Shown here piece by piece: positions 4,069 through 63,109 of a DNA stretch of 64,000 nt (position 1 is the stretch's first letter; each line of letters opens with the position of its first letter). The translations under genes and the position numbers were made by a program. The stretch spans positions 13,173-77,172 of the forward strand of contig JBAZJG010000001.1 in the NCBI GenBank assembly GCA_041651455.1, in the 5' to 3' direction. The notes under the pieces are model-generated. The model saw only the letters and a program-made list of their open reading frames with translations, did not search any database and was not told where the DNA came from. Source of the DNA: Candidatus Omnitrophota bacterium. Its GTDB lineage: Bacteria > Omnitrophota > Gorgyraeia > Pluralincolimonadales > Pluralincolimonadaceae.

Positions 4069-4070
4069 AT

Positions 4071-5396: not shown

Positions 5397-5420
5397 AGTA
5401 TGGTATAATTATAAATCAAT

Positions 5421-6743: not shown

Positions 6744-6759
6744 AACAGGAGGATGAGAG

Positions 6760-8313
6760 ATGGACGAAGTCACTTTGAGGGATTATCTGAAGGTACTTTT
6801 CAGGCAAAAATGGGTGGTTATAACGTCAATACTGACGGTAACGATAGTTGTGGGGCTTGGACTCTGGATGAAGACCGAGACATACACGGCAACGGTAAAG
6901 ATGCTCGTTACCGCGCAGAAGGGAGTGGAGTCGCAATTTTACGGCCCACTGATGAACATGCAGAGCGTCCAAGTCGCGCTTACGCAGAGCGAGATAGTCA
7001 AATCCAACCCCGTAATGGAGCGCACGCTCAGGGCTATAGGCCTCAAGCAGCTCGATTTCGAGAAGAAGTTCGCGAGCCCCTTGCGCAGGATAATAATAGA
7101 CAGGAACATCGCCTCGATAAACAAAAAGCTCGATGATATGGCATCAAAGATTCCGGATGAGAACATCAGGGAGCAGCAGAAGCAAAATGTGTTAGTCCGC
7201 CTTGCGCTCGAAGAACTCAAGCAAAATGTAAAGGTAGAACAAGTTCGCGATACGAATCTTTTCACGATATCATACAGCGATTTCGACCCCGGTATTGCCT
7301 CGGGTGTCGCAAATATAATAAGCCGTTCATATGTCATCTTCGACCTCGAACAGCAATTAGCTGAGATGCAGATGAAATACGGCGACAAGAACCTTGCGGT
7401 TATCCAGCTCAGGGACAGTATTGCCCAAATGGAGAAGAGCTTGACCGGCCAGGTATTACCGAATATAGAGGCGATAGGCCCGGCAAGCGTAAAGATAGTC
7501 GAGCAGGCAATGCCGCCCATGAGGCCATCGGGGCTTCCTAAAGTTCTTACGTTTATTCTAGCGTTCTTTATGAGTATTTTCCTCGGGGTCATGCTCGCGT
7601 TCGGGTTCGATTACATGGACCAGACGTTCAAGTCGCCGCAGGAGATCGAGAGCGTGCTGGGCATGCCGTTCCTCGGAGCGATACCCAAGAAGCCGAAACC
7701 CCACGACTACGAGCACATCTCCGACCAGTTATGTTTTGAGCTCAAGGACCGGAAGCTCAAGTCGCTTATGATAGTCGCATCTTATCCAAAGGAAGGCATT
7801 ACCACGGCAATCGCGAACCTCGCGAGGAGCATTTCTAACAAATGCAGGCCGAAGGTCCTTGTAATAGACGCGAACCTTCGCAAACCGGCCGTCCATACCG
7901 CCTTCAAGATCGCCAATAAGGCGGGGCTTGTGGATGTTCTTGAAGGGACCGTTTCCTTCAATGAGGCGGTAAACAACGTGACCGCAAATCTCGCTGTTCT
8001 CACAAGCGGAAAGATAAACCTGAATCCCGGCACCCTGCTTGAATCCCAGAAGATGGGTGTCCTCATAGACCATGCCAAGCAGGAGTATGATGTGGTATTC
8101 GTGGATTGCACGAACCTGCGTGAAGCAAAAGATGCTATCGTATTGAGCCCACACGTAGACAGCGTTGTATTTATGGTCGAAGAGGGCCGCACCCGCCGCC
8201 AAGTAGCTAAGGAAGCGGTTGAAGCGATCTCCAAGGCGAAGCCGGTCTTCCTCGGCGCCATACTTGGCAGTAAGCGTTTCGTCATCCCGAAGGCGATATA
8301 TGAAAGGATCTAA
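6760..8313 (+). CDS. Wzz/GumC-like chain-length determinant fused to a degenerate BY-kinase (P-loop) domain
   Basis: An N-terminal TM helix plus coiled-coil Wzz domain is followed by a second TM helix. The C-terminal CpsD/Wzc-like domain has SYPKEGITT in place of the Walker A motif GxGKT/S, so it is probably a pseudokinase. Confidence 0.65.
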   Translation: MDEVTLRDYLKVLFRQKWVVITSILTVTIVVGLGLWMKTETYTATVKMLVTAQKGVESQFYGPLMNMQSVQVALTQSEIVKSNPVMERTLRAIGLKQLDFEKKFASPLRRIIIDRNIASINKKLDDMASKIPDENIREQQKQNVLVRLALEELKQNVKVEQVRDTNLFTISYSDFDPGIASGVANIISRSYVIFDLEQQLAEMQMKYGDKNLAVIQLRDSIAQMEKSLTGQVLPNIEAIGPASVKIVEQAMPPMRPSGLPKVLTFILAFFMSIFLGVMLAFGFDYMDQTFKSPQEIESVLGMPFLGAIPKKPKPHDYEHISDQLCFELKDRKLKSLMIVASYPKEGITTAIANLARSISNKCRPKVLVIDANLRKPAVHTAFKIANKAGLVDVLEGTVSFNEAVNNVTANLAVLTSGKINLNPGTLLESQKMGVLIDHAKQEYDVVFVDCTNLREAKDAIVLSPHVDSVVFMVEEGRTRRQVAKEAVEAISKAKPVFLGAILGSKRFVIPKAIYERI

Positions 8314-8698
8314 GTTCCTTCTGCTCGCTGCCTTCGCCATGATGCCTTTCGGCGTCCATGACAGCGTTATAAGCGAAGTGCCGCAACCAAGGATAATTGC
8401 ACCCTGTGACACAGTAGACCTCACAGGAAAAAGTACCGTCGAATTCAAGTGGTACTCCTACATGAGGGCAACCGCCGCAAAAGGCGGATATTTTGACCTC
8501 AGGATCTTCAAAGGCACCGATATGTATGAAAGCAACATGATATTCAAACAGCAGGTTGACCCTCAAAAGAACAGCATAGAGGTGGACGCAAAGCTATTTG
8601 AGTCCGGCCAGACGTATTCATGGGAAATAAGACAGGTAAAATACGATTTGCGCAAAAGTGATTGGAGCTATGAAACGTTTAAGGTAACAACAAAATAG
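8300..8698 (+). CDS. Small secreted hypothetical protein
   Basis: The ATG at 8300 gives MKGSKFLLLAAFAMMPFGVH, a signal peptide. The longer ORF starting at 8219 overlaps the upstream gene and is unlikely to be real. Confidence 0.45.
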   Translation: MKGSKFLLLAAFAMMPFGVHDSVISEVPQPRIIAPCDTVDLTGKSTVEFKWYSYMRATAAKGGYFDLRIFKGTDMYESNMIFKQQVDPQKNSIEVDAKLFESGQTYSWEIRQVKYDLRKSDWSYETFKVTTK

Positions 8699-8706
8699 GA
8701 CCGACA

Positions 8707-9402
8707 GTGAGAAGTATTATAATAATATTTTCTTTAGTATTTATTGTTTTATATGGGGTATTTTTTACACTCGATGCTCTTGCACTCCAACACCTGACCC
8801 AGGAAGACGGAGTTATTGAGTGGTTCGGCGCTTTATGCTTTTTAGCCGCCTGCGTATTGTTATTTCGCGTATTTTACCGAACAAAGTACGCTTTTATTCT
8901 TCTATTGGGTATTGCCTGCTTTTTTGCTTTCGGAGAAGAAATTAGCTGGGGACAGCGGATAATAGGCTTTAAAACACCAGAATCAATCGAAAAAATAAAC
9001 GCACAGAAAGAATTTAATATCCATAACCTCAAATGGATTCAGCATAAAGACACTATTGGCATGGATATGAAGAGTATTTTAAATTTCAACCGTTTATTCA
9101 TTATATTTTGGATATCATATTGTGTCATTTTACCGATCGTATTTAAGTATGGCACATACGCCAGAAGCATCATTTTGCGCCTAAAAATCCCGGTGCTGCC
9201 CATATGGTTCGGAGTGTTGTTTTTTATAAATGAAATTACCTGTAAGTATCTGGATTGGTATTTGGATAACAAATGGCTGCAACGCCTTGGAGAGAACGAG
9301 GTCAAGGAAGCGATATGGGGGCTATTAATTTTGCTGATTAGTATTTATTGGACCAAAAAGAAGAAATCCATGATAGGTTGTAATACTCCGAATGATTTAT
9401 AA
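8707..9402 (+). CDS. Hypothetical integral membrane protein (first gene of the AT-rich segment)
   Basis: Multiple hydrophobic helices. GC content drops sharply from here on. Confidence 0.45.
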   Translation: MRSIIIIFSLVFIVLYGVFFTLDALALQHLTQEDGVIEWFGALCFLAACVLLFRVFYRTKYAFILLLGIACFFAFGEEISWGQRIIGFKTPESIEKINAQKEFNIHNLKWIQHKDTIGMDMKSILNFNRLFIIFWISYCVILPIVFKYGTYARSIILRLKIPVLPIWFGVLFFINEITCKYLDWYLDNKWLQRLGENEVKEAIWGLLILLISIYWTKKKKSMIGCNTPNDL

Positions 9403-10621
9403 GTTTAATATTAACAAGTCAATAAATCTGCTATTAAGCCAAGTAGTATATTCGGGGAAAAGTTTTCTAATAGCTTTTGTTTTGGCGAGATATTTTGATA
9501 AAGTTGCTTTCGGAATATTTTCTTTTGCAATGATAGGTTTAAATAATTATTTAGCTTTATTGACGGGCCTCGTATATGAACCACTGGCGATTCTCAAAAA
9601 TGAGGTAAAATCAGGATACTGTAATGTAGTCACTTATTTATTCAGGAAACAATGGCAGCTGAATCTTATCCTATGCCTATTACTGTTTTCACTCCTGTTG
9701 TTTAATATTTCCGGGCTAACAGCAAAGAGAATCACACTAATCTTTATATTATTTGTTCTGTCTCAATTGCATGAATTTTTTAAACGGGTACAATTAGGAC
9801 AACTTGATACAAAGGTGGCCCTCGCCTACGATTTAGCTGTTACCGTGTTTCAAGTAGGGTTCTTAGCACTGTATTTTCTGATGAAAAAGGTGGATCTTGA
9901 CAATGTATTCATTGCTCTTTCTCTTGGTTGTGTTCCGACGATCCTATTCGGGTTGATCAAGCATCCCGAAGTATTTGCCCCTCACAAGGCGATCAAAGAT
10001 ATATTTGCCCGTAGTTATTATAAATACGTAAAGCCGAATTTTATGTTCTTTATAGTGGGTTTTGCCTCAAACCAGTTCAATAATTTTGCTATATTTATGT
10101 TTCTTGGCAGCTCGAATTTGGCGAACTGCGAAGCAGTGCGTCTTACCATTATTCCTTTACACATAACGATTTTGGCGATGGGTAATATTCTTATACCATA
10201 TTTTTCGAAAAACTTGGCTGTATACGGGAAGGAAGAAACCGTTATTAAATTCAGGCACGTATTATCTCTTTCCTTAGTTATTTTTGGCATTTTCGCATTA
10301 TTTATGTTGGCGTCAGGGCCTGCTTTATTAACATATTTCTATGGCGCTAAATACCAAAACCAGCTTATTCTACTCGTCATATATACTTTTATATATGTAT
10401 TTGACGGGCTGACTATAATCCTGATTTCATTCATGAAATCCCTGGGATTGATAAATGAAGGCCTTCGCCGGAGGTTTATCGTAGCGATCCTTAATATAAT
10501 ATTAGTATTTCCATTATTGCACTATTATAAGGAAGCAGGCGGATTGTTTTCAATGATGGTTTCAAGCGCCATCATGGTAGTTATGTACTTTAAGATCTTA
10601 CGCAATAGAAAGCTCGTATAA
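9392..10621 (+). CDS. Multi-pass membrane protein, oligosaccharide flippase-like (MOP/Wzx family)
   Basis: 409 aa with about 10-12 TM helices. It lies next to glycosyltransferase genes. Confidence 0.45.
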   Translation: MIYKFNINKSINLLLSQVVYSGKSFLIAFVLARYFDKVAFGIFSFAMIGLNNYLALLTGLVYEPLAILKNEVKSGYCNVVTYLFRKQWQLNLILCLLLFSLLLFNISGLTAKRITLIFILFVLSQLHEFFKRVQLGQLDTKVALAYDLAVTVFQVGFLALYFLMKKVDLDNVFIALSLGCVPTILFGLIKHPEVFAPHKAIKDIFARSYYKYVKPNFMFFIVGFASNQFNNFAIFMFLGSSNLANCEAVRLTIIPLHITILAMGNILIPYFSKNLAVYGKEETVIKFRHVLSLSLVIFGIFALFMLASGPALLTYFYGAKYQNQLILLVIYTFIYVFDGLTIILISFMKSLGLINEGLRRRFIVAILNIILVFPLLHYYKEAGGLFSMMVSSAIMVVMYFKILRNRKLV

Positions 10622-10640
10622 TGAAGAGAATGAATAGAAA

Positions 10641-11849
10641 ATGAACGTATTGATGCCGATATATTCCTGCAATCCTGAAGGTGAGTCGGAGTCACTTGTT
10701 GGGTATAATTGGCTTGAGCAGATAAGCAAGCATCACAAGGTGTTCCTGATTACCGAGCTGAGATATAAGAAAGCTTTGGAAGCCAGGCCAACTGAAAATA
10801 TTGTTTATAACTATGTTTCTGTTCCCCATTTCTGGGATCTGGAAATATTTAGCGCATTTCCACCAGCGTATTTTATTTTTATGATAAAAGCTTATATTGT
10901 GGCAAAGCGGATAGTAAAAAATGAAAAAATCGATTTAATCCACAGAATAACTCCAATAGCATTTCGTTTCCCGGATATAATTACTAACATAAAATTGCCT
11001 TATATTATTGGTCCAGTTGGTGGAGGGCTAAAGCCGCTAAAATCGTTTCAAGGTGTTTTCAAAAAGGAAAGCCCTGTATATGCATTAAGGACCTTCGATT
11101 CGTTAAGATTCGCATTGGACCCTTTCTTAATAAGAACATACAATCGAGCGACAAGTATTCTTGTGATAGGAAAGTACCTTTATGATGTATTCCCGAAGGA
11201 GTATCATAAAAAGACAAAAGTATATTGTGAGGCTACAATTGATTCGAGAAAGTATAACTATGTACCTGAAAGGAGTAACAATATAATTGAGCTATTGTAT
11301 GTAGGTAGGTTTATACCGTTAAAGGCGGTGAGCCTGCTTATTAGGGCATTAAAAATATTAAAAGATGAGAATAGTATAATTGAATATCGCCTAACACTGA
11401 TTGGTGGAGGCGGGGAGTATTATAAATATTGTGTGAATCTTGCAAAGGAATTGGGAATTTCATCAAACCTCAAATTTATGGGGAGAATAAAACGTAGCGA
11501 AATAATCGAATACTATCAAAAATGCGACATATTTTGTTTTCCCAGCTTGAAGGAGACGTCTGGAAATGTTGTACTGGAGGCAATGAGTTGCGGGATTCCG
11601 GTAATTGTTGCGGATAGAGGTGGGCCGGCTGAGATCGTAGATAGTGGCTGCGGAATCAAGATTCCCGTAACGAATGAAGATGAATTTATCGTCCGGTTGA
11701 AGGATGCCATTGTGTTGTTAGCTCAAGATAAGGAATTGCGCCACTTTTATGCCGCTAATGCCCGAAAAAGGATCGAACAGCTATACGATAACAACAATAT
11801 CGGCGAGCAAATCACGGAGATCTATAAAGACGCCCTGACCCATGCATAA
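10641..11849 (+). CDS. Family 4 glycosyltransferase (GT4, GT-B fold)
   Basis: The C-terminal half carries the GT4 EX7E region (FCFPSLKETSGNVVLEAMSCGIPVIVADRGGPAEIV). Confidence 0.8.
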   Translation: MNVLMPIYSCNPEGESESLVGYNWLEQISKHHKVFLITELRYKKALEARPTENIVYNYVSVPHFWDLEIFSAFPPAYFIFMIKAYIVAKRIVKNEKIDLIHRITPIAFRFPDIITNIKLPYIIGPVGGGLKPLKSFQGVFKKESPVYALRTFDSLRFALDPFLIRTYNRATSILVIGKYLYDVFPKEYHKKTKVYCEATIDSRKYNYVPERSNNIIELLYVGRFIPLKAVSLLIRALKILKDENSIIEYRLTLIGGGGEYYKYCVNLAKELGISSNLKFMGRIKRSEIIEYYQKCDIFCFPSLKETSGNVVLEAMSCGIPVIVADRGGPAEIVDSGCGIKIPVTNEDEFIVRLKDAIVLLAQDKELRHFYAANARKRIEQLYDNNNIGEQITEIYKDALTHA

Positions 11850-13017
11850 AATATCCGGTATTCGGCTGGCTTTAGTCAACCTTGTTACGCAAACCGCGCT
11901 AACTCGAATAAAGGCGCCACTTGTAAAATCTAATAAAGACGCCATGATCGTCTCTTTTGCGGCTGCCCTAAACAAACAAGGCGTGGCGACGGATCTATTT
12001 GTATCGGATGCGTATAAACCCGAAAACAATGAAGATATCGGCGTCAATGTATATTATCTTCCCACTAAATGGAAACGGGTATTTTGGCCTTCATGTATCC
12101 CGCTTACGCCGGGGCTTATCAGGATGCTCAAGGATAGATATGACGTGGTGGTTTGTTCGGAATTATTTCAGATTGCAACGGTCCTTGCCGTGATAGCAAA
12201 AATTCTTGGCAGGAGAAAGATGAAGATCGTTGTATGGCAGGAGATGGCGCGGCATCAGAGGATTATGGGGCAGCTTATATCAAAGATATACCATGCAGTT
12301 GTTGTAAGGTATTTCATGGATAGGCATATCGATCTTTATATCCCTCGCGGAGAATTGGCAAGACGATTCCTTTTAAGCCAGGGGATCAAAGAAGGCAAGA
12401 TTTCCGACATTATTCCACACGGAGTAGATGCAGACAAGTTCTACTATGATCCTGAGGTGAGAAAAGAGCGCTATATTATTTCGCCTTCCAGGTTAGTATA
12501 TTCAAAGGGCGTGGACGTTCTATTGAAAGCATTTGAAATTGTGTTAAAGGAAATCCCGGATGTACGGCTCATCATTCAAGGCGACGGGCCACAACTAGAG
12601 GAATATAAACAACTTGCCAAAGAGGCCAGGATTGACAAACAGGTCATTTTTAGTACCGAACGGATATCTCACAATGAAATGCGGCAGAAATACCAGAGAG
12701 CGCTGGTGACAGTTATTTGCTCTCGTAAGGATTTGATGATTTTTAGCGCAATGGAAAGCCTCGCTTGCGGAACGCCTGTTATTATTTCAAACGGAGCGGA
12801 TAGTTACACGAATTATCTTGACGGAAAGGGAGGAGTTGTATTCGCCTCAGGCGATTATAGTTCGCTGGCAGGAGTGATTTCATATTTGTTAAAGGACGAT
12901 AAATATCGAAAGGATATGGTTGGATTTGCGCTGGAAAAAGCAAAATATTACAGTAACGAGTACTTATCCGCTTTATTTATAGAAACGATCAGCCAGAAAC
13001 AGGGAAAATCTAAATGA
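11842..13017 (+). CDS. Family 4 glycosyltransferase (GT4)
   Basis: C-terminal motif ICSRKDLMIFSAMESLACGTPVIISNG. GT-B fold. Confidence 0.75.
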   Translation: MHKISGIRLALVNLVTQTALTRIKAPLVKSNKDAMIVSFAAALNKQGVATDLFVSDAYKPENNEDIGVNVYYLPTKWKRVFWPSCIPLTPGLIRMLKDRYDVVVCSELFQIATVLAVIAKILGRRKMKIVVWQEMARHQRIMGQLISKIYHAVVVRYFMDRHIDLYIPRGELARRFLLSQGIKEGKISDIIPHGVDADKFYYDPEVRKERYIISPSRLVYSKGVDVLLKAFEIVLKEIPDVRLIIQGDGPQLEEYKQLAKEARIDKQVIFSTERISHNEMRQKYQRALVTVICSRKDLMIFSAMESLACGTPVIISNGADSYTNYLDGKGGVVFASGDYSSLAGVISYLLKDDKYRKDMVGFALEKAKYYSNEYLSALFIETISQKQGKSK

Positions 13018-14459
13018 ACTATAGAAATACCTTTTTGACGCTATCAATCGCAGTTATAGCGTCAATATTGTTTGCGAACCAATTCCTTGACATAACAGAA
13101 ATAGTTTATGCCATTTACAATAGTTCCGCAGTTGCGAGAATACTGCCCTTCATAGTTGTATTATTTGTGTTTTGGCTGTTGCTCGCCGTATTTGTTTATT
13201 TCCTGGTCTTATCGCTAATAAAAACACAACTCGGGTTATATTTTGTAATACTGGTACTGCCAATGAGCGCCCTGCCGTTTATTTTATTGGGGTATCCTCA
13301 AGCCGTATTAAATTGGTCGTTTATGTGCCGGTCATCGGTGGTTGTGTTCGCGTTGATGATATCTATATTTTGGATGATAAGAACTTCTTTATCGGAAAGG
13401 CAACAAATACGGCTGCCATACCTTGGAAGCATAATTATATTTATTGCCCTGTATTCAATACACATAATAGGAATCGGCCCTGAGCTGAGGTTAAGCGTAA
13501 TTCAATCAATATTCGTGTTATTGTCAGTCAGTATTTTCTTTTATTTTATTATTAATTATGTAAAGGGTTATATCGAGATATATGGAATCGTCAAGGTCAT
13601 GGCCATTTCATGTATCCTTCAAGCCATATTATCTTTTTTCAGTTATTACTATTATGTAGCCATTAAAGGAGAGAGTATTTATAGCTTTAGCGGTTTTTTG
13701 CGTGATTATGAACTATTTGCCGAATACCTGGCTATTCATGTCCCGATTATATTATTTGTAATACGCAAGGAGACAGGAATATCAAAGAAAGTATTTACCG
13801 GCGGTTTGGTATTGGTAATCTTCGTATTAATAGCTACATTTAGCAGAGGGCCATTAGTTTCATTATTTATCGGGATGGTATATTACTTTATTCATTTAAG
13901 GAAAGTCGAAAAGCTGTCGGGTATATTCAAATCAATCCTACTGGGTGTATTTATGATCGGTATTATGTTATTCGCTGTTTATATGCTATTACCCGCTTCA
14001 GCGCGAATAATAGAACGGTTTCTTGCTACCGATCTTAGCACAATGGATACGAGAAGGGATGTCTGGTTAAGGTTTGGCGATTATTTTGCAGAAAAACCAA
14101 TTATAGGATACGGCATGTTTTATGATATACGAAGCGCCAAGTTGTTCTGGCCTCACAGCACTTATTTATTTTACCTTTTAACATTAGGGATCTGCGGCTT
14201 GCTGAATTACCTGATATTTTTATTCGGGATTATAAGAAAAGGACTTGAAAGCGCAAGAATAAGCCATTCAATTCCCCAATATTATGAGTTGACTATAACA
14301 TTGAATTCCGCTCTCATAGTGTTTATTATTGATGGCTTGAAGGTAGATTATCAGAGGTATTCTAATTATCAAATGTTTATATGGTTGATATTTGCGCTCG
14401 TTGTCTGTTTGAATATTATTACTAAAGAAAAATACATAGAAAGGTGTAATAAAAAATGA
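13014..14459 (+). CDS. O-antigen ligase/polymerase family membrane protein (Wzy-like)
   Basis: 481 aa with more than 10 TM helices. It contains the Wzy_C-like loop (ATFSRGPLVSLFIG). Confidence 0.6.
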   Translation: MNYRNTFLTLSIAVIASILFANQFLDITEIVYAIYNSSAVARILPFIVVLFVFWLLLAVFVYFLVLSLIKTQLGLYFVILVLPMSALPFILLGYPQAVLNWSFMCRSSVVVFALMISIFWMIRTSLSERQQIRLPYLGSIIIFIALYSIHIIGIGPELRLSVIQSIFVLLSVSIFFYFIINYVKGYIEIYGIVKVMAISCILQAILSFFSYYYYVAIKGESIYSFSGFLRDYELFAEYLAIHVPIILFVIRKETGISKKVFTGGLVLVIFVLIATFSRGPLVSLFIGMVYYFIHLRKVEKLSGIFKSILLGVFMIGIMLFAVYMLLPASARIIERFLATDLSTMDTRRDVWLRFGDYFAEKPIIGYGMFYDIRSAKLFWPHSTYLFYLLTLGICGLLNYLIFLFGIIRKGLESARISHSIPQYYELTITLNSALIVFIIDGLKVDYQRYSNYQMFIWLIFALVVCLNIITKEKYIERCNKK

Positions 14460-16793: not shown

Positions 16794-16802
16794 GGGAGAT
16801 TA

Positions 16803-17810: not shown

Positions 17811-17815
17811 TTTCT

Positions 17816-18916
17816 ATGAAAATCGTATTTGTTGGCACTCGCGGGTTACCGAATGTCCAAGGTGGTGTTGAAAAGCACTGCGAGGAATTAACGAAACATT
17901 TGGCCAGGCTGGGTTGTGATGTCACAGTACTAACAAGAGCGCCTTACGTAGATTGCTCAATAGCCAGTCATAATAGTGTTAAGCTAATTCATTTGCCCGC
18001 AATAAGGAACAAATTCCTTGAAGCATATTGCCATACCTTCTACGGGATTATTGTGGCACGGAAGCTAAACCCGGATATTTTACATATTCAAGCCATTGGA
18101 CCAGGATTTTTCTGCCTATTTGCACGCATACTAGGTTTAAAAGTTGTCCTGACCAGCCATGGATCGAATTACAAACACCAAAAATGGGGTAGATTCTCGC
18201 GGTCATTTTTAAAATTCTGCGAGTACATGGGGGTTAGTTACGCTAATAAAGTTATTGCAATATCACAGAATATTGCGAACGAGATAAAAACTCAATATAA
18301 CCGGGAAGCGAAGGTTATACCTAATGGAGTAGAGATTCCTCAGGTTGAAGCTGAAAGCAATACCCTGGATGAATATGGATTGGAAAACAAGAAATACATA
18401 ATTGCTGTTGGAAGGTTTGTGGCAGGTAAAGGGTTCGAGGACTTGATCGAGGCTTTCGGCAGAGCATCGCTATCTTCATTCAAGCTGGTGATTGCCGGAG
18501 ATGCGGACGTAGAGGATGATTACAGCCGAGAACTGAAGGAACGGGCAAGACGGATGCCAAACGTTGTATTAACTGGTTTTATTACAGGTAAACCGTTGAA
18601 GGAGCTTTATAGCCATGCCGGGCTGTTTGTACTACCTTCCTATTATGAAGGCCTGCCGATAGCGCTGCTTGAGGCGATGAGCTACGGGCTGTCTTGCATA
18701 GTGTCGGATATACCCGCTAACAGGGAAGTTGGACTTGCCGAGGAAAGGTATTTTAATCCGGGAGACATCAAAGGGCTCTCGGATAAGATAAGGGAATTTG
18801 CCGCGAAGCCGTTAAGCGAAGAGGAAAAGTCCCGCCAGATAGCACTGATAAGAGAAAACTACGATTGGGATAAGATTGCCAAAGAGACCCTCCAGGTATA
18901 TCGCGATATCCTTTAA
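17816..18916 (+). CDS. Family 4 glycosyltransferase (GT4)
   Basis: N-terminal KIVFVGTRGLPNVQGGVEKH and C-terminal FVLPSYYEGLPIALLEAMSYGLSCIVSDIPANREV. Confidence 0.8.
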   Translation: MKIVFVGTRGLPNVQGGVEKHCEELTKHLARLGCDVTVLTRAPYVDCSIASHNSVKLIHLPAIRNKFLEAYCHTFYGIIVARKLNPDILHIQAIGPGFFCLFARILGLKVVLTSHGSNYKHQKWGRFSRSFLKFCEYMGVSYANKVIAISQNIANEIKTQYNREAKVIPNGVEIPQVEAESNTLDEYGLENKKYIIAVGRFVAGKGFEDLIEAFGRASLSSFKLVIAGDADVEDDYSRELKERARRMPNVVLTGFITGKPLKELYSHAGLFVLPSYYEGLPIALLEAMSYGLSCIVSDIPANREVGLAEERYFNPGDIKGLSDKIREFAAKPLSEEEKSRQIALIRENYDWDKIAKETLQVYRDIL

Positions 18917-18935
18917 AAGACTTCCTGTATTTCTG

Positions 18936-18968
18936 CTTGACAAGGCATTATTCTAAAAGGTAGAATAT
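18936..18968 (+). promoter_or_regulatory. Sigma70-like promoter candidate upstream of the first PEP-CTERM gene
   Basis: TTGACA at about 18937-18942, then an 18-nt spacer, then TAGAAT at about 18961-18966. Confidence 0.45.
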
Positions 18969-19029
18969 TACCACATGAAACAAGCCTGCCTGAGTGGGGG
19001 ACCGGCATTGGCAATCGGAGGAAACTACG

Positions 19030-19746
19030 ATGCGGAAAATTGCCTTTTCGGTTCTTTTTTTATGCCTGATTTCCAACCTTGCTATAGCTGATATATCAAC
19101 AATAGTGCTCCAACCGGGCCCTACGGATGGGAAAGATTCCATGGTCTCGGGAGCGGTGCCTAACCTCAACTATAGCCCATCAACCGGCAATTACTTCGGG
19201 ACATTCGAGAGGAACCAGGCCCTGCATGACGGGATATACAATGCCAACCATTCATTTGCGCTATATCAATTCGGGATGCCGTCGGTGCTCACCGGCCAGG
19301 ATATACTGAGCGCGACGTTCGAAGTGTATATATGCAACAACGTAATCAACACGAGCGGCGCAACAGGATATAAGACGCTGGGAGCGAACCGGATCACGAG
19401 CAATTGGGATGAATGGGCGGTGACGTGGAATACGAGGCCGTCAGAAGACACCTCCGTGATAGATTATTCGAATAATTTCTATGGCTACAATGCCTGGGCC
19501 TCATTTGATGTGACAAATTTCGTGGAAGGATGGGTCTCGAACCCGGCATCGAACTACGGGATGTACGTGAAAGACCCATGGACGACATATTACAGCTACA
19601 CGTGCCTGCAATCATCGGACTATAGTAACGCAACGTACCGTCCGAAGCTCACTATAACCTATAACGTTGTCCCGGAGCCGTGCAGTATGATATTATTTAC
19701 TGTAGGGGGAAGCGTCTTGTTCCTCCGACGTAGAATCCGCAAATAA
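19030..19746 (+). CDS. PEP-CTERM sorting-domain protein 1 (N-terminal domain resembles DNRLRE/CBM-like)
   Basis: Signal peptide MRKIAFSVLFLCLISNLAIA. The C-terminus NVVPEPCSMILFTVGGSVLFLRRRIRK* has the VPEP motif, a TM helix and an Arg cluster. Confidence 0.85.
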   Translation: MRKIAFSVLFLCLISNLAIADISTIVLQPGPTDGKDSMVSGAVPNLNYSPSTGNYFGTFERNQALHDGIYNANHSFALYQFGMPSVLTGQDILSATFEVYICNNVINTSGATGYKTLGANRITSNWDEWAVTWNTRPSEDTSVIDYSNNFYGYNAWASFDVTNFVEGWVSNPASNYGMYVKDPWTTYYSYTCLQSSDYSNATYRPKLTITYNVVPEPCSMILFTVGGSVLFLRRRIRK

Positions 19747-19771
19747 TACATAAAAATAGCAAGTAAATTTA

Positions 19772-19802
19772 GTTGACAAAAACCCTCATTCTGGTACAAT
19801 AA
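19772..19802 (+). promoter_or_regulatory. Sigma70-like promoter candidate upstream of PEP-CTERM gene 2
   Basis: TTGACA at about 19773-19778, then a 16-nt spacer, then TACAAT at about 19795-19800. Confidence 0.45.
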
Positions 19803-19887
19803 CCACGTTGCTTCAGAGTTTACCCACCAGTGATATTTTCTGAATTCTTATAGTACACCGTCGTACTAATATTCGGAGTAAAAAAAT

Positions 19888-20370
19888 ATGTTTAGAAACA
19901 TTTTGTTTGTAGTGGCTGTGGCAATGGTTTTATCGTTCTCAGTAAACGCGTTCGCAGACTTTGAAGTCCATATGGTGGACGCGCTTGGAAAGAACCTGCC
20001 TTCGGATTTCCGGGATGGCGGGGATTTCCAGCTTAGCGAGACACCGTACTTGTATTTCAATGTTGAAGACCTGAGGCAATATACTTTTGGCGGGTCTTAT
20101 TGGACCGATCCGGACAATGAGCTTGAGCTTACAGCTCCCGCGCTTGTATCAGGGAATGATGTCTGGTATACGCTTGACTGGACTTCGGTAACCAAAACGC
20201 CCGGTACGTGGACGGTGGAAGGTTGGTATAAATCGGCCGGCATTTTAAACTATACGTCGGATACAGTGACGTTCAATTATGTTCCCGAGCCGATTTCGAC
20301 CGCTTTGTTCCTGCTTGGCGGAGCGACATTAGTTGTTCGCAGGATGAGAAAGGAAAATAGAAAAATATGA
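19888..20370 (+). CDS. PEP-CTERM sorting-domain protein 2
   Basis: Signal peptide followed by the C-terminus NYVPEPISTALFLLGGATLVVRRMRKENRKI*. Confidence 0.85.
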   Translation: MFRNILFVVAVAMVLSFSVNAFADFEVHMVDALGKNLPSDFRDGGDFQLSETPYLYFNVEDLRQYTFGGSYWTDPDNELELTAPALVSGNDVWYTLDWTSVTKTPGTWTVEGWYKSAGILNYTSDTVTFNYVPEPISTALFLLGGATLVVRRMRKENRKI

Positions 20371-21068
20371 AAAGGATATTAGTTCTGGCGTTCATTATAT
20401 TAATGGCGGCCGCGTCTGCTTCGGCCGACCAGGTAAGTTTTGTCTGGAACTCGAGCGGCGACACCATACAGGGAGTCGATGGCGACACATCCTGGTGGTC
20501 GAGCAACGACAGCATGGTCAACCTGAATACTTACCAGTTAAGTTTGTTAAGCGGTTCCGCTGAAGCGATCGGCTATGATGGCCTGTGCAAGGGCTGGCTT
20601 ACTCAGCGCGGGACTAGGGGCCTCGGCATATCGGGAAGCGAGAACGACGAAATTGACAGCTATGATAAGGTCGAGAAGCTTGTTTTTACGTTCGATGCGC
20701 CCGTCTACATGAATTCGTTCGAGGTCAGGTCGCTGTATTATGAATCAAGCTTACTGACGAACGGCGACCACATGGAAAGAGGAGTAGCGAATTTTTATCT
20801 CGACAGCGCAAATGTATATAAGCAGTGCCTTACCGGCTCGGAGAATATATCGGCCGGTGGCGACGGGATAGCAAGCTACTCGTACGACCAGCCGTTCCTT
20901 ATCGACAAGATCGTATTCAATGTTCCCGCGAACAAATGGTATACGTACCAGAGCGAGTTTTCAGTGGCGAAGATGGATGTTACCACCGCGCCTGAACCTG
21001 TGAGCACGGTGCTATTCATATCGGGTGGAGCGGTAATGTTGGTGAGGAGATTCAAGAGGGCGCGCTAG
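20367..21068 (+). CDS. PEP-CTERM sorting-domain protein 3
   Basis: Signal peptide followed by the C-terminus TTAPEPVSTVLFISGGAVMLVRRFKRAR*. Confidence 0.85.
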   Translation: MKRILVLAFIILMAAASASADQVSFVWNSSGDTIQGVDGDTSWWSSNDSMVNLNTYQLSLLSGSAEAIGYDGLCKGWLTQRGTRGLGISGSENDEIDSYDKVEKLVFTFDAPVYMNSFEVRSLYYESSLLTNGDHMERGVANFYLDSANVYKQCLTGSENISAGGDGIASYSYDQPFLIDKIVFNVPANKWYTYQSEFSVAKMDVTTAPEPVSTVLFISGGAVMLVRRFKRAR

Positions 21069-21086
21069 CGCGGAAGGAGCAGTTAA

Positions 21087-21704
21087 ATGAAGAAGATAGC
21101 TTATTTACTGGTAGTTGCGGGCTTGTTATGCTTCAATCAGGCATTCGCCGATGATCTTAGCCCGACGGATGATGCGTATACCTATAGCCGCAGCGCAAAC
21201 CGAGACACGAATTATGGCGATAGTTTGGTTTTAGATATCGGCAAGATATACTCCTCGAATACAACCCAAAGCTATCTGAAATTTGACTTATCAAGCTATT
21301 CCGCAGGCATTGATTCAGCATATCTTTATCTATATCAAAATGTTGGTGTATTGCCAGCCGATATTAATGCTTATTCAACCTCGAATTCCTGGAACGAAAA
21401 TGATATTACGTGGAACAACCAACCGTCGACCTCCGGGACACCTGTTACTATTTCGGCCGGGAGCGGTATCGGTTGGTATTCATGGGATGTTACATCTTTG
21501 GCTCAGAGCGCGGCTGGGAATAGCTTCTCCTTGGCTTTGACGTCGAGTAATTATGCACATATGTTTAATTCGAATGAGGCACTGACGAATAAGCCCTATC
21601 TGGCCGTTACAGGAATTACGGTTCCGGAGCCGGTCAGCACGGTATTATTTATTATGGGCGGCTCAGTGCTTTTAGCCCGCAGGATTAGGAAGGGGAGAAA
21701 ATAA
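21087..21704 (+). CDS. PEP-CTERM sorting-domain protein 4 (N-terminal domain resembles DNRLRE/CBM-like)
   Basis: Signal peptide. The segment YGDSLVLDIG...SYLKFDLSSY...AYLYLY resembles the DNRLRE family. C-terminus ITVPEPVSTVLFIMGGSVLLARRIRKGRK*. Confidence 0.8.
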   Translation: MKKIAYLLVVAGLLCFNQAFADDLSPTDDAYTYSRSANRDTNYGDSLVLDIGKIYSSNTTQSYLKFDLSSYSAGIDSAYLYLYQNVGVLPADINAYSTSNSWNENDITWNNQPSTSGTPVTISAGSGIGWYSWDVTSLAQSAAGNSFSLALTSSNYAHMFNSNEALTNKPYLAVTGITVPEPVSTVLFIMGGSVLLARRIRKGRK

Positions 21705-22360
21705 TGAAGAAGGTATTATTCCTGGCTTTAGTTTTTCTGGTCGCGAGTTCCGCGACGGCGCATGCCATATCGGACATTTCCGGCTATTTCAACGCGGACA
21801 ACTGGTATGACATGTATATCAGCACTGATGATTCGCAGTTAGGTACTTTAGTCGGCAGTTCAGATAGGGGAGTATTTGATTGGGCAACTTCTGAAGATAT
21901 AGGGAATTGGGGCATTACCCTGACGCCCGGAGTGACAAATTATCTCCATATAGTTGCATGGGATGACAATTACAATATCGCGGGTGTGCTCGGTGACCTT
22001 CATCTGAACAATTCGAATTATGTGTTCAGCAACGGGACAACTTCACTGCTGACGAATACCGAGGACTGGACAGTTCGTTTGGGTAGTTTCGCGGAATCCA
22101 CAGCAACCATTGTAAATTCCGGCGGCTACACCAATGGCAGCACAGACAGTCCCTGGTATGAGTTCCTTGGCTCTTCGATCGCCAATATAAGCGGCGATGC
22201 CCAGATGATCTGGACGAATGAAAACGGAGAAAGGGATCTCGGCGCGACAAGGTATTTTTCGACGTCTATAAATACGGTCCCTGAACCGGTGAGCACGGCA
22301 TTGTTCCTGCTCGGCGGCGCGACGCTGGCGGTCAGGCGGCTGCGGGGTAAAAAGAAATAG
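21704..22360 (+). CDS. PEP-CTERM sorting-domain protein 5
   Basis: Signal peptide followed by the C-terminus NTVPEPVSTALFLLGGATLAVRRLRGKKK*. Confidence 0.85.
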   Translation: MKKVLFLALVFLVASSATAHAISDISGYFNADNWYDMYISTDDSQLGTLVGSSDRGVFDWATSEDIGNWGITLTPGVTNYLHIVAWDDNYNIAGVLGDLHLNNSNYVFSNGTTSLLTNTEDWTVRLGSFAESTATIVNSGGYTNGSTDSPWYEFLGSSIANISGDAQMIWTNENGERDLGATRYFSTSINTVPEPVSTALFLLGGATLAVRRLRGKKK

Positions 22361-22365
22361 AAGTT

Positions 22366-22397
22366 GCGGGGAGTTGAAAAACTCCCCGCTTTTTTAT
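22366..22397 (+). terminator. Rho-independent terminator
   Basis: A perfect hairpin GCGGGGAGTT-GAAAA-AACTCCCCGC is followed by TTTTTTATT, immediately after the stop of PEP-CTERM gene 5. Confidence 0.8.
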
Positions 22398-22420
22398 TAA
22401 CCTAATAAAAGGAGGGCGCG

Positions 22421-23164
22421 ATGCGCAACAGGGTGTTATTGGCTCTTGTCTCGGTTCTGTTCTTGATAACGGCGGCAGGCACGGCATCGGCGTATACGGA
22501 ATCGTCGACGGACCTCTGGAATTACCAGAATATTTCGAACTTGGACCTATATGTCAACGGAACATACCTGCTTACAGCTGATACTTCGAACAGCTATGAT
22601 AACATGACAGGGCAATATTATAACGCGTTCGGCGCATACTATTCTAACGGCGACGGGACAGCGGCGCGTTTTCCCGACTGGGATTACTCGAGTGGTTCGC
22701 CGACGACATATGCCGATGGGACAGTATGGAGCTTAAGGCTTACGCTTAATTCGTCGGTTACGGTAGGAAGCTTTGAGCTTCATGCCGAGCATGATGCTAT
22801 GAATGACGGGGCATATCGCGGCTCCGATTACAGGGGGTTCAAGCAGTTCAGCTTATATTCCTCAACGGACGGGAATAACTGGGGCAGTGCGTTATACGTG
22901 TATAACGCCTCGAATCCATACAATGGGGAATTAGGCGGGTTGAATTATAACGTATTGGATATCGTAAGGGACATAGACCCGACGGAATCTTTGTATTGGA
23001 GGATGGATTTCGTGCAGAACGGAGCTACGGCATGGGCTTCCGGGCCGCGTGTTAACGAGCTCGACGGTTTTGCGGCGACGGCCGTGCCGGAGCCGGTTTC
23101 GACCACGTTATTCATTCTCGGCGGAGCGACGCTGGCTGCAAGGCGCCTGCGCGGGAAGAGATAG
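22421..23164 (+). CDS. PEP-CTERM sorting-domain protein 6
   Basis: Signal peptide followed by the C-terminus TAVPEPVSTTLFILGGATLAARRLRGKR*. Confidence 0.85.
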   Translation: MRNRVLLALVSVLFLITAAGTASAYTESSTDLWNYQNISNLDLYVNGTYLLTADTSNSYDNMTGQYYNAFGAYYSNGDGTAARFPDWDYSSGSPTTYADGTVWSLRLTLNSSVTVGSFELHAEHDAMNDGAYRGSDYRGFKQFSLYSSTDGNNWGSALYVYNASNPYNGELGGLNYNVLDIVRDIDPTESLYWRMDFVQNGATAWASGPRVNELDGFAATAVPEPVSTTLFILGGATLAARRLRGKR

Positions 23165-23203
23165 ATTTTTGGGTGAGAGCAAGACAACCAGGGGGATGAG
23201 GAG

Positions 23204-23797
23204 ATGAAGCACATTTTGTTAGCGGTATTGTTTGTGGCGCTCGCGGCGGCGCCGGTATTTGCCGACGAAACGAACATGGTGTATAACCCGGGTTTCCAGA
23301 TGGCCCTTAATGGATGGAGTGTTTGGGGTTCGGCCTGGTTAGCCCCGGAAGGCCAGGATAGCACAAACGCGGCCTATTCATGGATAGGCTCGGGCGGATG
23401 GCAGGATATCGCGATAACCGACCCTCTGAAGACATTAAAGATAAGCGGCTGGCTTGCCGACATGAGCGAGACGCTGTATTTGGATCCGTTGGATACTACT
23501 GCCTACGTCGCATTCCGTCTTGAGTTCAAGGATGCCAGCGGCACCATACTTAACAAGTGGGAATCGGATAAGCTTTACGGGAACGGTTCGGGTTTAAGCT
23601 GGACACAGCTTTCGGGTTATGCGACGCCGGGCGCCGATGTAGTAAAAGCGACGCTTGTCTGGGAAACCCAGGGAAGCGGACACGGGACCGGCAGGTTTGA
23701 TAATTTCAGCGTAACGGCGGTCCCTGAGCCGGTTAGCACGGCGCTGTTCCTTCTTGGCGGCGCGACGCTTGTCGCGCGGAGATTGCGCAGGAAGTAG
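23204..23797 (+). CDS. PEP-CTERM sorting-domain protein 7
   Basis: Signal peptide followed by the C-terminus TAVPEPVSTALFLLGGATLVARRLRRK*. Confidence 0.85.
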   Translation: MKHILLAVLFVALAAAPVFADETNMVYNPGFQMALNGWSVWGSAWLAPEGQDSTNAAYSWIGSGGWQDIAITDPLKTLKISGWLADMSETLYLDPLDTTAYVAFRLEFKDASGTILNKWESDKLYGNGSGLSWTQLSGYATPGADVVKATLVWETQGSGHGTGRFDNFSVTAVPEPVSTALFLLGGATLVARRLRRK

Positions 23798-24460
23798 TTA
23801 TTTCCCGAAGAGGTATTCCGATTGTTCGGGAGTGAGGCTGCGGGAAAGGTCTTTGACGAAGTCCTTAGCGAGGCGGAGGGCGGTATCTGTGCCGCCTTTG
23901 CGGGTAGGTATATCGAGCCGGACCATGAGTCCGGCTTTTTTCTTTTGGAATATGGACGACCATAGCTCGATGAACTTTTGTTCCGTCCAGCCGACTATCT
24001 TCTTGTCTATACATATCCAGTAGACCATCGTGAGGCCCTCGCCGCCTTTATCCATTGAGAGCGCGTGGGCCTTGAACGTCTTGCCGCCGGCGGTCAGCTC
24101 GATATCGTCGAGCTCGGTGATCTTGTATCCGCTGGAGCCGTAGCACACTTTCGGGTTGTGGAAATTCCCGGCGTCGAGGACGAGCAGGAGGAGGCGTTCG
24201 CCGAGGAAGTTGCCGTAGACGCGCGCGAAGACATCGCCGACGAAATTATAGACCTCCTGGTCTTCCATCTTCGATTTCATGCTGCCGGAGACATCCATGC
24301 TCTGCCAGCCGGTCATCGCTACTGGTATATTTATTTTAGATAGCGTGTCCGTGCTTTTGTATTTCCATTTAGGCAGGGCAAAGGCAATAATCATTGTTAT
24401 TACAAGCAAAAGTAAAAGCGTTACTGTCTTATTCATGCTTATCTTATCGTTTATTTTCAT
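23798..24460 (-). CDS. epsI: Exosortase-associated EpsI family protein
   Basis: A single N-terminal TM helix plus a periplasmic domain with the HNPKVCY motif. It lies immediately downstream of the exosortase gene. The true start may be the internal ATG at about 24436. Confidence 0.7.
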   Translation of the reverse strand: MKINDKISMNKTVTLLLLLVITMIIAFALPKWKYKSTDTLSKINIPVAMTGWQSMDVSGSMKSKMEDQEVYNFVGDVFARVYGNFLGERLLLLVLDAGNFHNPKVCYGSSGYKITELDDIELTAGGKTFKAHALSMDKGGEGLTMVYWICIDKKIVGWTEQKFIELWSSIFQKKKAGLMVRLDIPTRKGGTDTALRLAKDFVKDLSRSLTPEQSEYLFGK

Positions 24461-25292
24461 ATTTTTCCATGATGAATTCTATAAACAAAAGGCCTATTAT
24501 CATTATTACGAATATTACGCCGCCGCTGAAATAATGGAAGAAGCCCTGCGCGACCTTCTCGCCCTTATGGTATGTAAGCAGGCAGAGCGTAATTACGCGG
24601 ACAAGGTTGCCGAAGAGCGCGAGAGGTATTATCGCGGCGACGAGCACGAACTTTTTCAGCAAAGTCCCTTTTATGACGTATACATAGAATATGCCGAGGG
24701 AGAACATCGTTATGAGCGAGCGGAACCCGCTGCACGGCGCTCCCATGAATATCTCGTGGGTTCCGAGGTAGATCATCAGACCTTCGCGGTGTATGGGGTA
24801 GTGGATGGCGTTCATTATCGCTACAGCGGCGACCGAGATGCCGTGGCGCATAGGTATCGTTATCGCGTCCAGCACGCCGAGGGGCGGCGGCATCATTAGA
24901 AGGAGGTAAAGGATCGGGAACGAAAGCAATTTTGCCAAACCTTTCCCGTAAATATAAATAATAATACCGTAGAGCAGGGGAATGAGCGAAAGTGTCGTTA
25001 TGAAAAAGAAACCAAACTTCCAACCGACGATGAACATGAAAAGGCCCAAGACTGCCAGTGAAAGCCCGGCGGCTGTCCTTGGGGCGTCCGGGCCCTTATA
25101 GCTGCGAAGGTTGCGCCAGGCAAGGAAGAGCGATAGGGGGAGTATGAAATACGCGTGCGTGTAATCTATTGTCTCCCAACGAGCTTTGTAAAGCTGGTAG
25201 ATGACAGGAGAGTAGAGAACACCCACTAACCCCCAAATTAGCAAGTGTGCCATAAAGATATTATACCAGAGAATTAAGTGTTGTGTCCCCAT
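24444..25292 (-). CDS. Exosortase (EpsH/XrtA-like transpeptidase)
   Basis: 282 aa with 8 predicted TM helices. It has the conserved putative catalytic Cys in GAPCSGFRSL and Arg in FGNLVRV. It is adjacent to seven PEP-CTERM substrate genes. Confidence 0.85.
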   Translation of the reverse strand: MGTQHLILWYNIFMAHLLIWGLVGVLYSPVIYQLYKARWETIDYTHAYFILPLSLFLAWRNLRSYKGPDAPRTAAGLSLAVLGLFMFIVGWKFGFFFITTLSLIPLLYGIIIYIYGKGLAKLLSFPILYLLLMMPPPLGVLDAITIPMRHGISVAAVAIMNAIHYPIHREGLMIYLGTHEIFMGAPCSGFRSLITMFSLGIFYVYVIKGTLLKKFVLVAAIIPLALFGNLVRVITLCLLTYHKGEKVAQGFFHYFSGGVIFVIMIIGLLFIEFIMEKYENKR

Positions 25293-25309
25293 AAATTTTG
25301 TTATAATAT
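25280..25309 (+). promoter_or_regulatory. Promoter candidate for the small-protein operon, in a divergent region shared with the exosortase gene
   Basis: TATAAT at about 25303-25308, with TTGTGT about 16-17 nt upstream. Confidence 0.35.
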
Positions 25310-26165: not shown

Positions 26166-26185
26166 ACTATACCGGAGGGACTTCG

Positions 26186-28071: not shown

Positions 28072-28093
28072 CATATGCTGTTTTTTTGTCTTC

Positions 28094-28178: not shown

Positions 28179-28217
28179 ATCCAGGCGCGAGGCGTTGAGA
28201 TTATAAACAGATATCAA

Positions 28218-63107: not shown

Positions 63108-63109
63108 AT

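Follow-up and report, generated by a model that had tools for sequence, protein, structure and literature searches.

The 64,000-nucleotide (nt) stretch analyzed here, referred to below as the window, comes from a Candidatus Omnitrophota bacterium (GenBank assembly GCA_041651455.1, contig JBAZJG010000001.1, positions 13,173 to 77,172) and carries an exopolysaccharide (EPS) locus next to a PEP-CTERM/exosortase system for sorting proteins. In our judgement it is very probable that the part between 8.7 and 18.93 kb is the strain-variable central cassette of a Wzx/Wzy-dependent surface-polysaccharide locus, placed between native flanks and acquired by recombination within those flanks. As such, the locus is a known kind of feature, a Wzx/Wzy variable cassette, found here in Omnitrophota beside a native exosortase system. 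An initial annotation of the same DNA had described a compositionally distinct island of about 18 kb (6750-25300), in which a foreign glycan module was spliced into a native EPS locus and linked to the sorting system. Its observations are partly confirmed and its interpretation is partly supported by the analysis presented here.

The AT-rich segment and its conserved flanks

When calculated in 1-kb windows, the GC content is 35-44% across 9-19 kb versus 50-58% over most of the remaining window, which bears out the trough described initially; the flanks measure 52-58%, lower than the 58-62% first given for them. The nine plus-strand genes at 8707-18916 each have a GC content of 0.35-0.44 and a GC content at third codon positions (GC3) of 0.35-0.45, equivalent to z = -8.6 to -11.5 against a reference of 0.740 ± 0.034 from the 30 genes at 28.3-60.9 kb, and the log-likelihood of their synonymous codons under the usage of this reference set gives z = -4.8 to -7.3. 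By tetranucleotide L1 distance, the core stands 0.55-0.60 away from the rest of the contig and the background 0.11-0.16, and the GC-normalized dinucleotide measure, Karlin delta*, is 140-150 in the core and 15-70 in the background. The codon-usage and tetranucleotide comparisons suggested with the original observation thus both agree with it. The native flippase gene at 5421-6743, which likewise encodes a polytopic membrane protein, has a GC3 of 0.75, and amino acid composition is therefore not the cause of the shift.

The extent of the anomaly is smaller than first proposed. The exchanged, compositionally distinct segment measures about 10.2 kb, from about 8699 (or 8307) to 18927. Outside it, GC3 z scores are -2.7 for the gene on its left (a Wzz/kinase gene), -1.7 for EpsI, -3.2 for the exosortase, and within ±1.5 for the upstream genes at 209-4068. 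The intermediate composition ascribed to the whole sorting system holds for its PEP-CTERM genes (GC3 0.48-0.65, z = -2.5 to -7.6), whereas the EpsI and exosortase genes are close to native.

When the locus is placed beside its relatives, the low-GC segment is seen to occupy a slot that can hold quite different genes. The left anchor of this slot is a native plus-strand gene at 6760-8313 for a Wzz-type polysaccharide co-polymerase (PCP) fused to a BY-tyrosine-kinase (PF02706, 42.7 bits, cutoff 25.5; TIGR01007, 115.6 bits, cutoff 108.05), and relatives were gathered through a protein search with its product, which returned homologues at 95, 90, 90, 80, 77, and 76% identity. A scan of genome contigs with the same protein gave no relative, no GTDB species representative was close enough for exact-peptide seeding, and an exact-sequence look-up of the Wzz/kinase and of the exosortase gave no identical record. 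The closest relative, contig L007 (kinase 95%), matches the window over 10-8306 at 93.5% nt identity, with the Wzz/kinase gene colinear at 93%, and homology then stops; its next 8.5 kb encode an epimerase, Wzx, an acetyltransferase, Wzy, three GT4 glycosyltransferases, and WecG at 28-36% GC. In L008 (kinase 90%), homology extends to 8680 and gives way to another cassette, encoding Wzx, GT9, Wzy, GT2, GT4, a deacetylase, GT4, GT9, and WecG. Three further cassettes are found on a contig designated P0004 (kinase 80%; compared by gene content only), in L068 (77%), and in L069 (76%), the last of which keeps the entire upstream gene order.

There are consequently six occupants of one slot: those of the window, L007, L008/L009, the P0004 contig, L068, and L069. 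In the five for which DNA is available, nt homology is lost at 8306-8680 on the left and regained at 18928 on the right. L008 and L009 are the one pair with a cassette in common; its two copies are 79% identical at the nt level, roughly as diverged as the flanks of these contigs. Every occupant with DNA is AT-rich relative to its own flanks (0.33-0.42 versus 0.52-0.55), with flank and cassette GC contents of 0.537 and 0.385 in the window, 0.535 and 0.327 in L007, 0.517 and 0.397 in L008, 0.515 and 0.383 in L009, 0.534 and 0.417 in L068, and 0.553 and 0.326 in L069. The idea of a foreign or exchanged glycan module within a native EPS locus is well supported by these comparisons, in which five relatives share the left flank and carry five other cassettes. 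It is supported also by the homology search, where the best non-self homologues of the island Wzy are 52-59% identical, against a kinase relative at 95%.

It could instead be argued that the low GC arose in place, in genes ancestral to this lineage, with no horizontal exchange; the cause would be a locally biased mutation pattern or selection that, for instance, keeps membrane and glycosyltransferase proteins weakly expressed or slowly translated. The AT-richness of all slot cassettes with DNA would fit this, as would the absence of mobility genes and the remark of Reeves et al. that low GC in the wzx and wzy genes of many clusters "needs explanation" (PMC3715488). We nonetheless regard it as improbable, as relatives with flanks at 95 to 76% identity hold non-homologous cassettes of other gene content and not diverged copies of this one, the native Wzx has a normal GC3, and the dinucleotide signature is distinct even after normalization for GC. 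One cassette protein, a radical SAM enzyme, moreover keeps 66-73% identity between phyla, much more than vertical descent would leave.

The left junction lies in a small plus-strand gene (8300-8698) for a 132-amino-acid secreted protein with a signal-peptide-like N terminus, inside which the GC content drops. The nt homology breakpoints are at 8306/8307 with respect to L007 and L069 and at 8680 with respect to L008. At the protein level, the junction gene product is 84% identical to that of L008 and 52% identical to that of L007, the reverse of the ranking for the kinase, which indicates that the crossover points differed between lineages. Neither this protein nor the product of the following gene, a 231-amino-acid protein (8707-9402), belongs to any family in Pfam or NCBIfam at any threshold. 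On the right, the junction occupies 18917-18927 (plus strand), and homology to relatives restarts at 18928 (L011/L012, 91% nt) or 18935 (L009/L010, 80%); the resumption at 18928 falls 12 nt past the stop of the last cassette gene at 18916.

No integrase, transposase, recombinase, or insertion sequence (IS) domain was found among the open reading frames (ORFs) at 209-27953, and a repeat search for direct or inverted repeats bracketing the island turned up nothing other than the PEP-CTERM signal family and brief chance matches. Crossover points that differ between lineages are expected of recombination within conserved flanks and agree with how exchange at O-antigen loci has been described. A classical mobile genomic island, inserted site specifically by an integrase or transposase, would also present as a compositionally foreign block, and the window does hold three tRNA genes nearby, tRNA-Lys(CTT), tRNA-Leu(TAG), and tRNA-Gly(GCC) (27998-28293, plus strand; ARAGORN and Rfam). 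The missing integrase, transposase, and recombinase domains and bracketing repeats leave such an island with next to no credibility; the tRNA genes, besides, lie 9 kb from the right junction across an interval that is conserved in relatives, and the left breakpoint moves between 8306 and 8680 from one relative to another. The Rfam search of the window returned nothing besides the three tRNAs.

A chimeric assembly is unlikely. The source is a metagenome-assembled genome (MAG), and it is conceivable that a low-GC fragment of another organism was joined to an Omnitrophota contig during assembly or binning. The independently assembled Logan contig L001 (SRR8542065), which is 100% identical to 8527-19698, ends close to the island edges, and breaks near the region are common in the contigs of relatives too. 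The same contig, however, spans both junctions and overlaps the conserved flank on either side, by about 150 nt on the left (to 8680) and by some 770 nt at the other end (past 18928). The spacing of genes shows no interruption, the gap at the left junction being 8 nt, and the architecture of flank, AT-rich cassette, and flank recurs independently in L007, L008, L009, L068, and L069, from other samples, so that an artefact of this kind is extremely improbable. In addition, we note that both ends of L001 fall only a few hundred bases from the island junctions and that contigs L002 and L005 end in the PEP-CTERM array; such breaks would fit branching of the assembly graph caused by coexisting cassette variants.

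Cassette gene content and a proposed pathway

The cassette itself comprises nine plus-strand genes, with functions assigned by homology. The first encodes the 231-amino-acid membrane protein already mentioned, with about five transmembrane (TM) segments (GC3 0.41, z = -9.8). The second, orf409 (9392-10621), encodes a polytopic protein of 409 amino acids with about 10-12 TM segments that is probably the cassette's own divergent Wzx/MOP flippase: its profile aligns with that of Wzx in hhalign at 94% probability (E = 9e-8, 169 colinear columns), with shallow profiles, while a BLASTP comparison with Wzx was not significant (E = 1.9). Two glycosyltransferases follow, GT4a (10641-11849; PF00534, 125 bits) and GT4b (11842-13017; PF00534, 99 bits). 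The next gene (13014-14459) encodes a Wzy_C-family membrane protein with about 14 TM-like segments (PF04932, 53.3 bits, cutoff 31.7; no NCBIfam model matched), which is probably the repeat-unit polymerase. The remaining genes encode a secreted right-handed beta-helix protein with a signal peptide (14456-15589; PF13229, 83.8 bits), whose matches in the Protein Data Bank (PDB) are mannuronan C5-epimerases, chondroitinase B, and alginate lyase, and then GT4c (15567-16793; Pfam), a radical SAM/SPASM protein (16803-17810; Pfam; NCBI MFA5163962.1), and GT4d, which has a DUF1972 N terminus (17816-18916; Pfam). The radical SAM protein carries a CX3CX2C motif and five C-terminal cysteines and is covered by no curated NCBIfam model.

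Upstream of the cassette, the native block begins with plus-strand genes for a GT2 (209-1162), a GT9 (1149-2294), a second GT2 (2282-3031), and a glycoside hydrolase-like protein (3028-4068), all assigned with Pfam. These have a GC3 of 0.69-0.79 and are colinear in L007 at 93% nt identity and in L069 at 74%. They are followed by a priming polyprenyl glycosylphosphotransferase (4071-5396, plus strand; TIGR03025, 362.7 bits, cutoff 295.55; PF02397, 218.5 bits) and a Wzx/MOP flippase (5421-6743, plus strand; PF01943, 198.6 bits), which are 98.9 and 98.6% identical, respectively, to their L007 counterparts at the amino acid level. Coupling is tight among the 17 genes from 209 to 18916, neighbours being at most 24 nt apart. 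The close coupling noted initially therefore applies to this run of genes and fails before the first two PEP-CTERM genes, where gaps of 113 and 141 nt occur. The number of plus-strand genes, given at first as 22, is 18 within 6750-25300 and 24 from 209 to 23797. The gene content named in the initial annotation was otherwise recovered, with the GT4 enzymes, Wzy, beta-helix, radical SAM/SPASM, PEP-CTERM, EpsI, and exosortase proteins and the upstream priming transferase and Wzx all present.

Taken together, this content allows a pathway to be proposed. A cassette of about 10.2 kb would have been acquired by homologous recombination inside the conserved 5' and 3' blocks, and it would have displaced another cassette along with WecG, CBM_4_9, MNT/HEPN, and C1-peptidase genes of the kind seen in relatives. 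The native transferase would prime undecaprenyl phosphate, and the four GT4 enzymes of the cassette would build the repeat unit, with the radical SAM/SPASM protein probably modifying a sugar or lipid-linked intermediate between the GT4c and GT4d steps. The Wzx-like orf409 product could then flip the unit, the Wzy_C protein could polymerize it, and the native Wzz/kinase would set chain length. It can further be hypothesized that the secreted beta-helix enzyme trims or epimerizes the polymer and that the seven adjacent proteins, which may associate with this polysaccharide, have their PEP-CTERM signals cleaved by the exosortase. If so, a swap of cassettes would alter the surface glycan and leave the sorting machinery untouched.

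Several other features of the left block and its relatives may be recorded here. In L007 (1-1654) and L069 (1-1628), the conserved block beyond the window's first gene contains an additional Wzy_C and Wzx pair and a methyltransferase; the locus may thus specify a conserved Wzx/Wzy system in addition to the variable one. Immediately upstream of the Wzz/kinase gene, some relatives have defence- or toxin-type genes inserted in the 5' block, namely, AbiEii and Fic, zeta toxin, and bAvd-like genes (L008, 2573-4011; P0004 contigs). Towards the window's end, a second low-GC stretch (60879-64000; 38-42% GC, GC3 z = -8 to -13) encodes a SAM methyltransferase (60879-61640), a radical SAM protein (61801-62712) whose viperin-like match of 54 bits is far under the cutoff of 180, and a DUF6375 protein with weak GT1 similarity (62712-63107), and it may be another exchanged glycan-related block.

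The PEP-CTERM array and the exosortase system

The homology that resumes to the right of the cassette takes in a promoter-like site before the first PEP-CTERM gene, PEP1 (18937-18966, plus strand; TTGACA-18-TAGAAT, 11 of 12 positions matched). The two best plus-strand promoter-like sites are held by the gaps of 113 nt before PEP1 and 141 nt before PEP2. Seven tandem plus-strand PEP-CTERM genes follow at 19030-23797, with ORF ends at 19746, 20370, 21068, 21704, 22360, 23164, and 23797. All seven proteins have a signal peptide and end in (V/A)PEPxS, a TM segment (with GG), and RR; TIGR02595 exceeds its 16-bit cutoff in four of the seven, the sorting signal appears in the repeat search as a seven-copy family, and PEP1 and PEP4 contain DNRLRE/CBM96 domains (NF033679, 95 and 105 bits). 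PEP5 and PEP6 are separated by a perfect, GC-rich hairpin of 10 bp (22366-22389), which has T-runs on both strands and looks like a bidirectional terminator.

The EpsI gene (23798-24460; TIGR02914, 56.6 bits, cutoff 42.8; PF11984, 78.5 bits) and the gene for an exosortase of the EpsH family (24444-25292; TIGR02602, 148.2 bits, cutoff 105.55; TIGR04178, 62.2 bits, cutoff 23; PF09721, 192.7 bits) overlap by 17 nt. Both lie on the minus strand and converge with the PEP-CTERM array; they do not belong to a co-directional plus-strand series, as had been supposed. The stop codons of PEP7 and EpsI abut with no spacer (23797/23798).

The two genes are assigned here as native, and their link to the EPS locus as conserved, because identity and synteny are kept in L002, L005, and L009, where EpsI is 84-88% and the exosortase 78-84% identical at the amino acid level. 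Right-flank synteny is retained through a DUF7544 gene in L005 and L009, and in L005 homology runs on at 86% nt through the tRNA and YvcK region. The initial annotation had named a vertically inherited arrangement in close relatives as evidence that would count against it. For the core, the relatives favour exchange, whereas on the exosortase side such an arrangement is found, at 76-86% nt identity, which is similar to the divergence of the housekeeping flank. The physical link to an exosortase system is real and is kept in L009. Of the genes at 25331-27953, after the exosortase gene, we observe that they are also conserved in L005 and L009; they encode a small secreted protein (weakly SoxZ-like), two small ORFs (one EF-hand-like), the DUF7544 membrane protein, and a family-less protein of 254 amino acids, and they may be accessory to the sorting system.

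These data bear directly on the idea of a single foreign island of about 18 kb (6750-25300) that brought the glycan module, PEP-CTERM genes, EpsI, and exosortase together. Its attraction is that GC lies under the contig mean over the whole interval, with GC3 z scores of -2.5 to -7.6 for the PEP-CTERM genes and -3.2 for the exosortase, and that a related cassette adjoins exosortase and EpsI genes in two distant contigs, L013 and L014, so that joint travel would be possible in principle. At its left end, however, the Wzz/kinase gene is colinear in L007 at 93% nt identity, and at its right end EpsI and the exosortase keep their synteny, at 78-88% amino acid identity, in L002, L005, and L009; homology to relatives restarts at 18928, right after the cassette, and L009 pairs the same exosortase block with a different cassette. 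The exosortase and EpsI are also closer to those of L002, L005, and L009 (78-84%) than to those of L013 and L014 (51-53%). Joint arrival is on these grounds highly improbable, and exchange of the cassette between native flanks is the reading that we retain.

The PEP-CTERM genes likewise occur in relatives, although their identity and number vary more. Their copy number is seven in the window, six in L009, and at least 12 in L002, and in L011 other genes stand in place of PEP2 between neighbours that are 91-92% identical. The substrate array thus changes through gene gain and loss independently of the cassette, and this turnover may explain its intermediate composition. In L009, the order runs from the cassette to WecG, a minus-strand CBM_4_9 gene, an MNT/HEPN pair, a C1 peptidase, PEP1 (87% identical to PEP1 of the window), five PEP-CTERM genes, EpsI and exosortase on the minus strand, and DUF7544. 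Between cassette and PEP1, relatives more generally carry the minus-strand CBM_4_9 gene (about 634 amino acids), the toxin-antitoxin-like MNT/HEPN pair, and the C1 peptidase (L009, 6112-9883; L011, 340-771; L007, 20400-21533). The window is without these genes, and its cassette directly abuts the PEP1 promoter region.

The exosortase falls below the cutoff of every subtype model, reaching 187.3 of 313 bits for XrtV, 165.4 of 275 for XrtB, and 137.7 of 208 for XrtA. The exosortases of the window, L009, L013, and L014 all score best with XrtV (180-201 bits) and remain below the XrtV, XrtB, and XrtA cutoffs; these four XrtV-like proteins may represent an uncurated subtype with a separate EpsI partner. 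No PrsK, PrsR, or PrsT was noticed among the scanned ORFs, the whole window not having been searched with those models; Haft 2006 lists genomes without them (PMC1569441).

Related cassettes and the radical SAM triad

The best homologues of the cassette Wzy sit in syntenic modules, on the 3.3-Mb contig L013 (ENA ERZ21869602) and on L014 and L015 (ENA/JGI metagenomes), which share the order orf409-like, GT4a, GT4b, Wzy, beta-helix, GT4c (and radical SAM, GT4d) and adjoin EpsI and an unclassified exosortase. Amino acid identities with L013 are 48% for orf409, 59% for GT4a, 58% for GT4b, 58% for Wzy, 48% for the beta-helix protein, and 33% for GT4c. An acetyltransferase replaces the radical SAM protein and GT4d in L013, and after the module come a PEP-CTERM gene and a convergent EpsI/exosortase pair, a layout like that of the window. 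In L014/L015, identities are 59% for Wzy, 56% for the beta-helix protein, 59% for GT4c, 80% for the radical SAM protein, and 56% for GT4d, and the exosortase and then EpsI directly follow the module, the exosortase of L014 being co-directional. The window exosortase and EpsI are 51-53% identical to those of L013 and L014. The L013 and L014 loci have a uniform GC content of 48-50%, with no dip, and because of this and their divergence they are not the donor.

Several points weigh against the account favoured here, in which the cassette is an exchanged Wzx/Wzy unit between native flanks. No donor was identified, and the nearest modules, those of L013 and L014, are only 48-59% identical (80% for the radical SAM protein) and are not AT-rich; since all slot cassettes are AT-rich, the low GC may in any case reflect a cassette pool or selection and not the GC content of a donor genome. 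The deviant composition of the PEP-CTERM genes (z to -7.6) is not fully explained by a simple native right flank. As to function, the flippase assignment of orf409 depends on shallow profiles (Neff 1.4), and the Wzy_C family includes O-antigen ligases and O-oligosaccharyltransferases as well as polymerases, the role of polymerase being inferred here. No outer membrane polysaccharide export (OPX/Wza) gene was found, Poly_export being unmatched among the ORFs at 209-27953; it may lie beyond the window, and L068, L013, and the P0004 contig each have an OPX gene beside the kinase. Finally, the reads behind L001 may be those of the source MAG, and all of the sequences are metagenomic.

This cassette type adjoins the same unclassified exosortase type in three contexts, the window, L013, and L014. 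It could be speculated that the type (Wzx-like/GT4/GT4/Wzy_C/beta-helix/GT4/radical SAM-SPASM/GT4) is functionally tied to the XrtV-like exosortase/EpsI subtype and is therefore more than a serotype cassette beside a sortase. Three contexts are too few to establish such a tie, and we think it unlikely. If it were true, the glycan could be the acceptor, or the Wzy_C protein the transferase, for attachment of exosortase-processed PEP-CTERM proteins; the GT4-radical SAM/SPASM-GT4 triad would install a radical-modified sugar new to glycobiology; and the locus would specify a strain-variable surface layer of glycan and cargo protein in Omnitrophota.

The triad can also be followed on its own. A genome scan with the radical SAM protein gave 52 loci (L016-L067). 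Homologues at 66-73% identity occur in Thermodesulfobacteriota, Phycisphaerae, Bacteroidales, Clostridia, KSB1, Spirochaetia, Omnitrophota, and Desulfoluna butyratoxydans MSL71, covering at least eight phyla, and others at 40-59% occur in Actinobacteria, Ignavibacteria, Zixibacteria, and DPANN archaea. The unit keeps its gene order and strand across many bacterial phyla and into the DPANN archaea: a GT4 gene lies within 400 nt and on the same strand downstream of the radical SAM gene at 36 of 43 testable loci, upstream at 30 of 43, and on both sides at 21 of 38. In the closest radical SAM clade, the cassettes that hold the triad are AT-rich and the genomes around them, from several phyla, are higher in GC (L019, L024, and L028), and Desulfoluna butyratoxydans MSL71 (L028) is a cultured carrier. 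The family is small, with 127 representatives (50% clustering) at E <= 1e-30 among 1.84 billion proteins, and our literature search gave no description of a radical SAM/SPASM enzyme in polysaccharide clusters. The notion that the triad itself is exosortase specific was dropped, the 52 loci having yielded no full-length exosortase and three weak partial matches.

Relation to known loci and biological meaning

Wzx/Wzy-dependent loci with serotype-specific central regions include the Streptococcus pneumoniae cps and Klebsiella K loci. The present locus resembles such O-antigen and capsule loci, including Salmonella/E. coli rfb, in that a conserved priming transferase, Wzx, and Wzz/BY-kinase are followed by a variable block of glycosyltransferase, wzx, and wzy genes that is AT-rich, non-homologous between close relatives, and exchanged without mobile-element genes. 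In Salmonella, the O-antigen glycosyltransferase, wzx, and wzy genes show a GC content of 28-37% in a genome of 51-52% (Reeves et al. 2013, PMC3715488). The locus differs in its Omnitrophota host and in a 3' flank made up of a PEP-CTERM array and exosortase and not of housekeeping genes; no OPX is in view, and the cassette adds a radical SAM/SPASM protein and a secreted beta-helix protein.

A second likeness is to the PEP-CTERM/EpsH EPS loci (Haft 2006, PMC1569441), including zooglan-type floc loci, and Haft 2006 found epsH nearly always among EPS genes (PMC1569441). The shared features are an exosortase and EpsI beside EPS genes, tandem PEP-CTERM substrates, and EPS neighbours that include GT4 enzymes, a PF02706 chain-length determinant, and a PF02397 sugar transferase, with the core models passing their cutoffs. 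Unlike in those loci, the exosortase belongs to no curated subtype, the host belongs to the Omnitrophota, and the EPS cassette linked to the system differs between strains.

In conclusion, the boundaries of the island are corrected here, and its exchanged part is separated from a native exosortase system. Two leads follow from the comparison: an exosortase subtype without a curated model that recurs beside one cassette type, and a GT4-radical SAM/SPASM-GT4 unit distributed from Desulfobacterota to DPANN archaea. The serotype-style swapping of AT-rich Wzx/Wzy cassettes, known in enteric and streptococcal pathogens, very probably takes place in uncultured environmental Omnitrophota as well, where at least six alternative cassettes in one slot imply strong diversifying selection on the cell surface, presumably by phages, predators, or partners.

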